A stretch of 64,000 nucleotides of DNA from positions 1-64,000 of the forward strand of contig CAXHJY010000533.1 in assembly GCA_964016885.1 (NCBI GenBank), given 5' to 3'. The translations under genes and the position numbers were made by a program. The stretch's first letter is position 1; every line of letters begins with the position of its first letter. The stretch is from Eledone cirrhosa (taxonomy: Eukaryota). The notes beneath the pieces are model-generated. The model was not told the origin of the DNA. It saw only the letters and a program-made list of their open reading frames with translations, and did not search any database. Below are positions 60,501-63,376 of the stretch, one piece after another.

Positions 60501-63376
60501 CAGCTAACAACTGATGTAGGTAGTTTGTTCCATGCTTCAGCAACACATGTGATATATGTATAATTCAGAAGACCTGACTTCCCCGGACACAAGCCGAAGT
60601 CGAAGCATATATACAGTATGTACCGCCGTATGTATATTGAGAGAGAGAGAGAGATGTATACTTACTTCATCCAACTCACAGAGGACAATCTGTTTGACCA
60701 TTGGGTGCTTGGCTACTTCACGGAGGACACCACCATCACCACCACCAATAACAAGGACCTGGTCATGAGATAGAGAGAATAAAGGTGCGAGATAGAGAAA
60801 GAGAAACAAAAAGAAAAAGAAATCCAGCATCAGCCCCACCCACTCTTTCACACATACCATAATATATATATATATAGATATATTATGGTATATATATATA
60901 TATGATGGTATATCCGGGAGCTTCCAACAGTAATGGTTGCATTCTTTAAGGGTATGTCAATATTTATTTATAAAACTGCTCTATATTATATTTTATCTGA
61001 TGAAAGCACACCATAATTTAACTTGGTGTCCTTGAAATATGTATAATAAAATAGATATGGTTTTATAAATGTAGTTTCCATTTGTTAATATTGTATATAT
61101 ATATATATATATATATATATATATATATATATATATATATATATATATAAATGAGATAATGAGATCGAGCTCGTGTAGGTGTCACAAGAAAAAACACACA
61201 GTCCATGCTGTAATGTGGCCATGTAGGTAACACGGTAAAAAGTTCCCAGTTCCACACTGTAAATGTGGTTGGTGTTAGGAAGGGCAGACAGTCCTATATT
61301 AGCGAGACATGGTCACCCAACCAACCTTGCCTCAAGTGGGACAACTCCCGTCTAGCCCATGCTAGCATGGAAAATGGACGTTAAACGAAGATGGATGATG
61401 ATGATGATGATATACATCATACATACATATATTACTGAAAGTACTCTGAGAGACTATAACTATTTGTCAATCAATAATAAACATTGATTGCCAACAAAAT
61501 TAACTATAGGGATATAAAATATACGGAAACGAACCAATCCAAACCAAACAGTGAGTGTGATTTATTATATATTTCTGGCAATATTATAACAATATGACCC
61601 TCCCCATATATATATATATAAACTGATCAATAGTGAAACGCGCATCATATACTCAATAAATGTAATGAAGTAACAAATCGTCCTTTTATTATTTTATATT
61701 TGCCTTTCATCCTTACGGGGTCGATAAAATAAAGTACCAGTAATGCACTGGGTAATTGCTGGCCTTGTGCCTAAAGTAGAAACAATTATTTTATATATAT
61801 ATATATATATATATATGTGTGTGTGACAACTCACACCTATATGTGTGTGTGTGTGTGACAGCTCACACCTATGCGGGTTTAGCTGGCCTCCTCCAAGGTA
61901 TATCTCGTTGGAGGTGTCTTGGGTAATCTTAATGATAGGGACTCCAGTCCCTATCATCTCATTTCTACAGCTGAGTAAACTGGAGCAACGTGAAATAAAG
62001 TGTCTTGCTCAAGGAAACAACACATCACCCGGTTCGAGAATTGAACTCACAACCTTTCGATTGCAAGCCCAATGCTCTAACCACTAAGCCATGCGCCTTC
62101 ATGACTGCACAGATCCTGTAGGTATGTGTGTGTTTGTGTATATAATAAATGGGGTTTACCTTTTTGGGATTCGGATGGCTGTACAGTGGGAGATTAGCTA
62201 TCATCTCTTGGTATGCAAATTCATCCCACTCTGTACATTGGATCAGACCATCTAGTACCAACATGTTACCAAACTTCTTGCTAGAAATAGTAGAAAACAT
62301 CAAAGAAGACAGATATAATAATAAGTGTTTCTACTTTTGACACAAGGGGCCAGCACTTTAAATATATATGAGGTCGTGTAGGCGTCACGACAAAAAAAAA
62401 CACACAGTCCACGCTGTAATGTGGCCGTGTAGGTAACACGGTAAAAACCTCCCAGTTCCACACTGTAAACGTGGTTGGTGTTAGGAAGGGTATCCAGCCG
62501 TAGAAAACCCGCCAGACAGTCCTGAGCAAGACAATCAATCTTGCCTCAAGTGTGACAATTCCCATCCAGACCCATGCTAGCGTGGAAGATGGACGTTAAA
62601 CGATGATGATGATGATGATACAAATATATATATATATATTTAAAAAGTTAAACAAGGTTCAATGAAAACATCAAAGAATGAATTTTTTTTTCTCATGTTC
62701 TCAATATTAGGGTATAAATATTGAGTTTTGTCATATGTTAATCACTACCATGACTGAATCTTAACCATCTACTATGTCAGGGTATGTCATGCATCATCTT
62801 ATTTTATCTGATGAGGACGTACTGTTGAATTTAACTCAGTACCTCTGAAATATGTATAATAAAATATAATTGATCACAAGAATATCTATTTTGTTAATAT
62901 TTTGAATTAATATATATATATATATGTATATAGCTATGTATGTATGTATGTATGTAGTGCCTTTGCTCACTATAAAAGCTTCACAGCACAGGCATTGCTT
63001 TATATCTGGAGATCTCTCTGCACTTGTCGTCACATGGTACCATGGGGCCAGCACTATGTGTCAATAATTGTCACAAGTGTAGTGTTTGTACCAGAGTTTT
63101 CAAGGGGGTTCTCCTACATGGATATAAAGTAGTGGCCGTACTCGAAAACGAGTTGGCAGCCACCATGTATGTATGTATGTATGTATGTACAGCCTTAAAA
63201 ATGCAAGTTTTCTCATACATACAGAGAGAAAAAGTTTGTTACCTTCTGAACACCTGGATGTCTTGATAGTCAGACTTGCCCTGGAAGAGCACTTCCTCGA
63301 TTTCCACTGCCAAACTAATGCCAAGGTCCATATAGCTGTGTATTTCATGGAACCATCCATTCTCTACGCGAGACAT
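57463..63376 (-). CDS. SRM: spermidine synthase-like aminopropyltransferase; spliced, 7 clear exons, 285 aa plus an uncertain C-terminus
   Basis: The spliced translation has [69 protein letters not shown] and [17 protein letters not shown]. Introns are GT-AG with consistent phases. Confidence 0.93.
57983..58128 (-). CDS. SRM: SRM coding exon 6
   Basis: acag|(G)[48 protein letters not shown]|gtatt. Confidence 0.94.
58450..58533 (-). CDS. SRM: SRM coding exon 5
   Basis: tcag|(G)[27 protein letters not shown]|gtaag. Confidence 0.94.
58781..59478. mobile_element. TTAA MITE interrupted by an RTE LINE 3' fragment (about 58970-59460, - strand)
   Basis: Internal - frame MLHGSETW...[12 protein letters not shown]...GRPRKTW with (ATG)n tail and an AGTAAT target duplication. 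Confidence 0.85.
59531..59684 (-). CDS. SRM: SRM coding exon 4
   Basis: ctag|[51 protein letters not shown]|gtatg. Confidence 0.95.
59895..60545 (-). mobile_element. same LINE 3' fragment with 7 x 61-bp tandem array
   Basis: Homologous to 38925-39385; units spaced 61 bp from 60107. Confidence 0.7.
60666..60758 (-). CDS. SRM: SRM coding exon 3
   Basis: ccag|[31 protein letters not shown]|gtaag. Confidence 0.96.
60989..61053 (+). ncRNA. type I minimal hammerhead ribozyme (Penelope-like-element type)
   Basis: TATTTTAT-CTGATGA-AAGCACACCA..TGGTGTCCTT-GAAA-TATGTA-TA-ATAAAATA: 8-bp stem I, intact core, 9/10-bp stem II, self-complementary loop 3, AUA cleavage triplet. Confidence 0.78.
62160..62280 (-). 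CDS. SRM: SRM coding exon 2
   Basis: ctag|(S)[40 protein letters not shown]|gtaaa. Confidence 0.96.
62800..62866 (+). ncRNA. type I minimal hammerhead ribozyme (Penelope-like-element type)
   Basis: TATTTTAT-CTGATGA-GGACGTACTG..CAGTACCTCT-GAAA-TATGTA-TA-ATAAAATA: same architecture as 60989 with a different but still paired stem II. Confidence 0.78.
63243..63376 (-). CDS. SRM: SRM first coding exon
   Basis: ATG at 63376: [44 protein letters not shown]|gtaac; an in-frame TAG lies upstream of the ATG. Confidence 0.9.

Follow-up and report, generated by a model that had tools for sequence, protein, structure and literature searches.

Two hammerhead motifs in spermidine synthase introns of Eledone cirrhosa probably originate from the terminal repeats of sister Penelope-like element families

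The 64,000 nt stretch of the Eledone cirrhosa genome considered here (assembly GCA_964016885.1, contig CAXHJY010000533.1; 'the window') contains exons of SRM, the gene for spermidine synthase, on its reverse strand (Table 1). One public contig splices the first coding exon straight to exon 2, which places two small repeats, termed copy B and copy A, in introns 1 and 2 respectively. Such contigs cannot show strand, start or level, their depth was not taken as copy number, and they showed no empty-site joint for copy B. Each of the two is a 180-225 nt pseudo-LTR (pLTR) fragment inserted in (TA)n and carries a minimal hammerhead ribozyme motif; as originally predicted, both lie antisense to SRM and bracket exon 2. 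Other repeats are present in the same region. These include a tandem array of approximately seven 61 nt units in SRM intron 3 (60044-60595); another high-copy repeat, flanked by (TATG)n, that adjoins SRM exon 1 (62953-63188); and a long near-perfect hairpin repeat (56702-56795), probably the inverted end of another element, relatives of which adjoin the ends of Penelope-like elements (PLEs) at three further loci (L013, L098 and L105).

Table 1. Features of the SRM region, in window coordinates
Feature	Position	Strand	Remark
SRM (spermidine synthase), first coding exon	63243..63376	-	Pfam Spermine_synt_N, E 9e-10
SRM exon 2	62160..62280	-	Between the two insertions
SRM exon 3	60666..60758	-	
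Copy A, short pLTR fragment of putative Hydra-clade Penelope-like subfamily A2	60911..61091 (3' end approximate)	+	(TA)n-flanked
Minimal type I hammerhead motif A	60989..61053	+	Predicted cut after 61045
Copy B, 5'-truncated pLTR of putative sister Hydra-clade family B	62688..62912	+	Ends in (TA)n
Inverted family B 'tail' piece abutting copy B at its 5' end	62631..62686	-	Typical PLE 5' inversion
Putative family B pLTR promoter: TATA-like box (62713), initiator-like site (62744)	62713..62747	+	Sequence motifs
Minimal type I hammerhead motif B	62800..62866	+	Predicted cut after 62858

A check of the window sequence found both motifs on the forward strand at the positions first given for them. 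They have in common an 8 bp stem I, which in motif A can be extended by around 12 further pairs, the core CUGAUGA/GAAA, an NUH triplet and a six-base loop III. The identity of stem I, core and loop III between the copies was thus as described in the original prediction, and the core, NUH triplet and self-complementary loop III are those of minimal hammerheads of type I such as Penelope-like elements carry, as had also been proposed. The stems II had been reported to differ in sequence yet pair, with the same C.C mismatch at pair 4, and this is indeed the case: copies A and B differ at 7 of 10 positions, six changed on both sides and one on a single side, the others being two identical pairs and the common mismatch at position 4. 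The one-sided change affects pair 10.1-11.1 (A-U versus G-U). A generic type I descriptor matched three times in the window and never in any of 30 shuffles. The motifs taken singly do not fold much better than shuffles (z of -1.75 and -1.23), and Rfam hammerhead models gave no match to them at E<=1 or E<=10. Given a weak computed loop III duplex, at -2.2 kcal/mol, and a pair 10.1-11.1 that is A-U or G-U rather than the usual G-C, activity may be low.

Hammerhead-like sequences of other kinds were also encountered. A third motif in the window, at 28437-28508 on the forward strand, belongs to another family, in an element of around 150 nt between (TA)n tracts; its relatives at L078, L137 and L125 are 86-94% identical and often form inverted pairs, and its helix III resembles that listed for the octopus element Hydra-1_Obim. 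Further unrelated minimal hammerhead families with a short stem II are found in L144 (185-231), L148 (1760-1809), L134 (2350-2401) and L165 (4282-4331).

A search of the 3.0 Gb genome with the common ribozyme arms and a free spacer returned 7,338 exact matches (3,717 + 3,621), and the reversed control none. The flanks of these matches fall into families with different stems II, of which there are at least five types among the loci fetched. The repeats end in (TA)n, either around 45 nt past the motif or after an extra tail of around 90 nt, the latter being present in 40 of 100 family B copies. Many have an inverted partner. Head-to-tail monomer arrays of the type formed by retrozymes were not seen: close neighbours of the same family are mostly inverted duplicates, and the one direct pair among 100 matches listed, 206 nt apart, consists of members of two subfamilies.

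Both window copies have close relatives in elements with coding capacity. Copy A, for which 40 relatives (itself included) were scored at 88-100% identity from 661 candidates, is 94-96% identical to the pLTR downstream of reverse transcriptase (RT) and GIY-YIG endonuclease sequences in L163 and L164. Similarly, copy B is 89-95% identical to pLTRs flanking RT and GIY-YIG in L071-L090, and the inverted piece at its 5' end matches, at 89-91% over 55-58 nt, the stretch from the 5' pLTR to the ORF start in L074, L078 and L089, all three of which are arranged as pLTR-ORF-pLTR with a spacing of 4.0-4.2 kb. Of nine motif-centred regions, four contain the remnant of a GIY-YIG sequence, at 1.2-2.0 kb upstream of the motif. 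When 20 loci were instead chosen on endonuclease DNA alone, without reference to the motif, 17 had same-strand copy B sequence (89-95%) at a distance of 0.4-2.2 kb downstream; one other had a partial copy, and two had none downstream but a copy B upstream. RT and endonuclease were located upstream of the A1 pLTR in 2 of 12 loci (L121 and L122) and of the A2 pLTR in 2 of 8 (L163 and L164), with one more having an adjacent inverted ORF, although these values are not frequencies, because the A-type loci were chosen for their long shared flanks. The window itself and 9.9 kb beyond contain no PLE ORF detectable by tblastn, in agreement with the earlier observation that no RT or GIY-YIG ORF is nearby and as expected for truncated insertions; the suggestion then made, that the motifs may represent an undescribed non-autonomous family, is not supported, since the same sequences are the pLTRs of RT and GIY-YIG elements elsewhere in the genome.

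In these parental elements the ORF starts around 265 nt after the core and is followed by a 3' UTR of 1.3-2.2 kb, giving a unit of 4.0-4.2 kb. The ORFs are interrupted in all genomic copies seen, with the longest open pieces reaching 385-408 aa; homologues, at 32-39% identity, are single ORFs of around 700 aa, while the proteins of families A and B are 50-62% identical to one another. Pfam named no domain in three parental ORF pieces, a search of PDB by sequence gave nothing significant, and RT was apparent weakly in one of four homologues scanned by Pfam (RVT_1, E 4e-5, below the cut-off). Translations of the ORF pieces inspected by eye contain DKT, the CxCX5C linker, CxxC and CxH around E/N, and an RW-basic motif, which reads RWR or RWQ where the homologues have RWK; CCHH is absent. 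Taken together, ORF pieces and single-ORF homologues describe one ORF with RT and, at its C-terminal end, the GIY-YIG endonuclease, as in EN+ PLEs, and the pLTR direct repeats, inverted 5' pieces and optional tail correspond to the PLE layout. The copies examined are inserted in (TA)n, a trait of the Hydra clade. The parental elements therefore carry the features of PLEs, and appear to belong to the Hydra clade, as assigned from motifs rather than from a tree; Neptune was considered as the parent clade and dropped once the Hydra motifs had been checked. On the reverse strand of the oriented locus L126 is an uninterrupted 1,046 aa endonuclease and RT ORF of a LINE-type element.

Two other types of structured RNA were considered and rejected. 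The motif's occurrence in thousands of copies, on both strands and as PLE terminal repeats, argues against an intronic H/ACA or C/D snoRNA on the sense strand of SRM. The same applies to a SECIS element, the AUGA/GA core hairpin that in Naiad PLEs lies downstream of an ORF with in-frame UGA; furthermore, the cysteine motifs of the ORF pieces translate as Cys, and conservation is not confined to the SECIS quartet but takes in the core of the hammerhead and its loop III.

Covariation was assessed in 19 distinct variants, picked by a descriptor demanding both core and pairing. Eight of the nine stem II pairs have changed on both sides, whereas stem I varies mainly through G-U wobbles. Loop III is self-complementary in 18 of the 19, with a two-sided change at one pair, and its six-base form has three self-complementary family variants, one of them changed on both sides. 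Shuffles matched the observed covariation values 0-1 times in 500 on four of five measures and 93 times in 500 on the fifth; the figure of 97.7% paired is partly circular, given the pairing-demanding descriptor. The catalytic core is invariant in all 19 rows, which were picked on it, and pair 10.1-11.1 is A-U in 12, G-U in six and G-C in one. The bulged base after A9, typical of hammerheads but not obligatory, is absent.

An independent set consisted of 100 B copies, chosen solely by sequence that lies 3' of the cut, and 81 of them span the whole motif. In these, rare substitutions affect 14 of 891 core cells (1.57%) and 63 of 3998 flank cells (1.58%). Variants common to at least four copies are found in none of the 11 core or six loop III columns, in 1 of 20 stem II columns, where the pair is kept, and in 1 of 16 stem I columns, compared with 9 of 52 in the flank and 5 of 12 in loop II. 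The core is intact in 65 of the 81. That core and flank decay alike while the fold is kept at the level of the family indicates selection on source elements, not on inserted copies. The proposal that stem II covariation reflects selection in the parent families is accordingly upheld by the two-sided changes and a core free of common variants.

The 5' ends of the copies are informative about the RNA from which they were made. Among the 100 B copies, 37 begin at -77 to -53 from the core, around 60 nt upstream of it, a cluster coinciding with the initiator-like site, which in copy B lies 31 nt after the TATA-like box; likewise, six of nine A copies begin at -82 to -88. At least 17 of the B copies reach around 580-600 nt upstream, as far as the comparison went. 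Because both arms of inverted insertions were counted separately, the 100 copies are partly dependent on one another. Insertions with ends set by the cut (+51) were looked for and not found, only two B copies having 5' ends near it and one more being unaligned. The motif spacing and genomic 5' ends suggest that transcription of the pLTR starts at the TATA/initiator-like motif, and with so few ends at the cut, it would have been uncut RNA that was copied. Copies in the cluster can then be interpreted as run-off copies of pLTR-initiated RNA through an uncut hammerhead. This agrees with the internal RT start and dispensable ribozyme described, in the accessible text, for PAc, the Poseidon element of Anolis (PMC11167929; Frangieh et al. 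2024).

Overall, it is very probable that the two motifs are hammerheads from the pLTRs of two sister PLE families with Hydra-clade protein motifs, and that the copies in the window are short insertions into (TA)n of SRM introns, which likely arose independently and are likely inactive. The common 5' boundary of many short copies, in both A and B families, and the retention of a promoter-like site by copies such as B could alternatively reflect a non-autonomous family resembling retrozymes or SINEs, which is copied from its own short RNA and borrows PLE protein; tandem retrozymes have been described as PLE derivatives, according to the part of the preprint available (bioRxiv 10.64898/2026.07.22.740005). 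However, the short copies are 89-96% identical to pLTRs of ORF-bearing elements, at least 17 of the 100 B copies reach far upstream of the boundary, copies that begin at the putative start have no upstream TATA, and the arrays expected of retrozymes are replaced by mostly inverted neighbours, so this alternative is considered improbable.

A further alternative is that the fold is conserved as a binding or dimerisation site for the element protein and is no longer a self-cutter alone, with cleavage rare or gated by protein. Inserted copies do not begin at the cut, consistent with such a role, and in PAc the hammerhead required protein for cutting, while insertion did not depend on it (PMC11167929). 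Within the otherwise covarying stem II, none of the 19 variants departs from the unpaired C at position 4 or from an A-U pair at position 7, which possibly represent a tertiary contact; they could also be accommodated by a binding site. By contrast, all catalytic positions and NUH are kept across families whose proteins have diverged extensively, which is the prediction of selection on catalysis, and a binding site in place of a ribozyme is judged quite improbable.

The original prediction also held that a single antisense transcript could supply both partners of a dimer. Extended to function, copies A and B would form a cutting heterodimer in an antisense transcript across SRM exon 2 and thereby regulate SRM. 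With intact cores in both copies and no difference between their loops III, a heterodimer could form in principle, and the promoter-like site of copy B faces antisense into SRM exon 1. An intact core is nevertheless the norm among unselected B copies, and the single transcript is unsupported: copy A, starting at -86 from the core, where most A-type copies do (around -86), begins at its family's inferred start and lacks the upstream promoter, and the site in copy B is downstream of A and points away from it. In addition, sense SRM mRNA was the sole spliced product among the contigs. Nor is the pairing unusual, as neighbours from different families are common and have no strand bias. A motif of a different family was found within 1.5 kb on the same strand at 6 of 30 loci matching the shared arms, and on the opposite strand at four; in the B copy set the values were 5 and 6 of 25, five of 30 loci with no detectable central motif having been dropped, though some loci recur between or within the two sets, and deleted B copies, rather than other families, may account for one or two of the neighbours. 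L182 has the same A2 and B pairing as the window, and clustering of different families is expected from their shared (TA)n target. A regulatory pair is hence regarded as very improbable. Independent insertion of two sister lineages likely explains the different stems II, these being family sequences, and from the sequence evidence copies A and B are likely neighbours by chance and likely inactive in SRM, for which the two insertions probably do not matter.

Under the favoured origin from PLE pLTRs, a source element would be transcribed from the pLTR TATA/initiator promoter through the hammerhead, tail and ORF, and its protein would nick (TA)n DNA and begin reverse transcription at a point within the tail. 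If copying ran back as far as the RNA's 5' end, it would leave a promoterless solo pLTR, such as copy A, while copying of the second, downstream pLTR with an early stop and inversion would generate copy B. The source element's hammerhead would cut as a dimer via the self-complementary loop III, perhaps assisted by protein. As the hammerhead sits between start site and ATG, its most likely job would be the trimming or turnover of read-through RNA in tandem form, rather than fixing where insertions end.

Hammerheads in the pLTRs of PLEs and in Hydra elements are already published as a class. Minimal hammerheads were described in the pLTRs of metazoan PLEs by Cervera and De la Pena (2014; PMC4209133), where, in the part of the article available, they occur as covarying families of thousands of single copies from truncated elements, with inverted pairs and weak dimer cleavage. 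Those described here are alike in having a type I core, a helix II that is long and a helix III that is tiny and palindromic, in their presence in both pLTRs, and in forming thousands of mostly single truncated copies with close inverted pairs and compensatory changes. They differ from the hammerheads in that available text in a stem I of at least 8 bp, rather than 4-5, an A-U or G-U rather than G-C pair 10.1-11.1, the lack of a bulged base between 9 and 10.1, and a fixed internal mismatch in stem II.

The Hydra clade of C-terminal EN+ PLEs with hammerheads, including one from an octopus (Hydra-1_Obim), was described by Craig et al. (2021; PMC8557442) and is defined, in the sections accessible, by DKT, CxCX5C, the lack of CCHH, and CxxC with CxH. 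The parental elements share these protein motifs, (TA)n targets and a hammerhead with near-palindromic helix III near the 3' end; the hammerheads of Hydra-1_Obim and the other Hydra elements listed there have the same general build, but other sequences. The units reported for the clade in those sections are under 3 kb, whereas those here are around 4.0-4.2 kb with a 3' UTR of 1.3-2.2 kb, have RWR or RWQ in place of RWK, and reach copy numbers in the thousands.

With PAc the E. cirrhosa families have in common two 3' ends with an optional tail and AT-rich targets. As reported in the accessible part of PMC11167929, RT starts internally at the tail, uncut RNA is the main substrate, as it would be here, ribozyme mutants insert normally and the hammerhead needs protein to cut. 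PAc is of a different clade, its tail is 30-40 nt rather than around 90 nt and its ORF starts inside stem II rather than around 265 nt after the core. Non-LTR retrozymes are likewise short non-coding units whose type I hammerheads are related to those of PLE pLTRs, but, in the available parts of bioRxiv 10.64898/2026.07.22.740005 and PMC7229834, are head-to-tail tandem repeats; those found here are pLTR fragments that derive from coding elements and are dispersed, singly or as inverted copies. In the literature searched, which excluded most subscription papers, PMC8557442 was the only relevant source on cephalopod or octopus hammerheads together with Penelope, Hydra or Neptune, and no paper on these particular families was found; Repbase and Dfam were outside the search, so the families may already be catalogued.

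A broader and doubtful interpretation, offered as speculation, is that at least five Hydra-like families, none of them listed, have radiated in this genome, with one core, for the most part one loop III, and in stem II a fixed mismatch together with an A-U pair that never varies, possibly forming a tertiary contact not yet described. Such families could cleave each other's RNAs in trans; the ribozyme, located between start and ATG and copied uncut, may be a self-limiting off-switch on element expression instead of a step in transposition processing; and host pre-mRNAs could be cut by intact intronic copies, of which there are thousands, where two are on the sense strand.

For the question of what purpose PLE hammerheads serve, the E. 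cirrhosa genome is a natural dataset of large size. Its families add to the sparse sampling of the Hydra clade and supply covarying variants for work on dimer cleavage, and their combination of family-level selection, neutral decay of copies and 5' ends at a putative promoter rather than at the cut is in agreement, in vivo, with the finding made in vitro that the template is uncut RNA.
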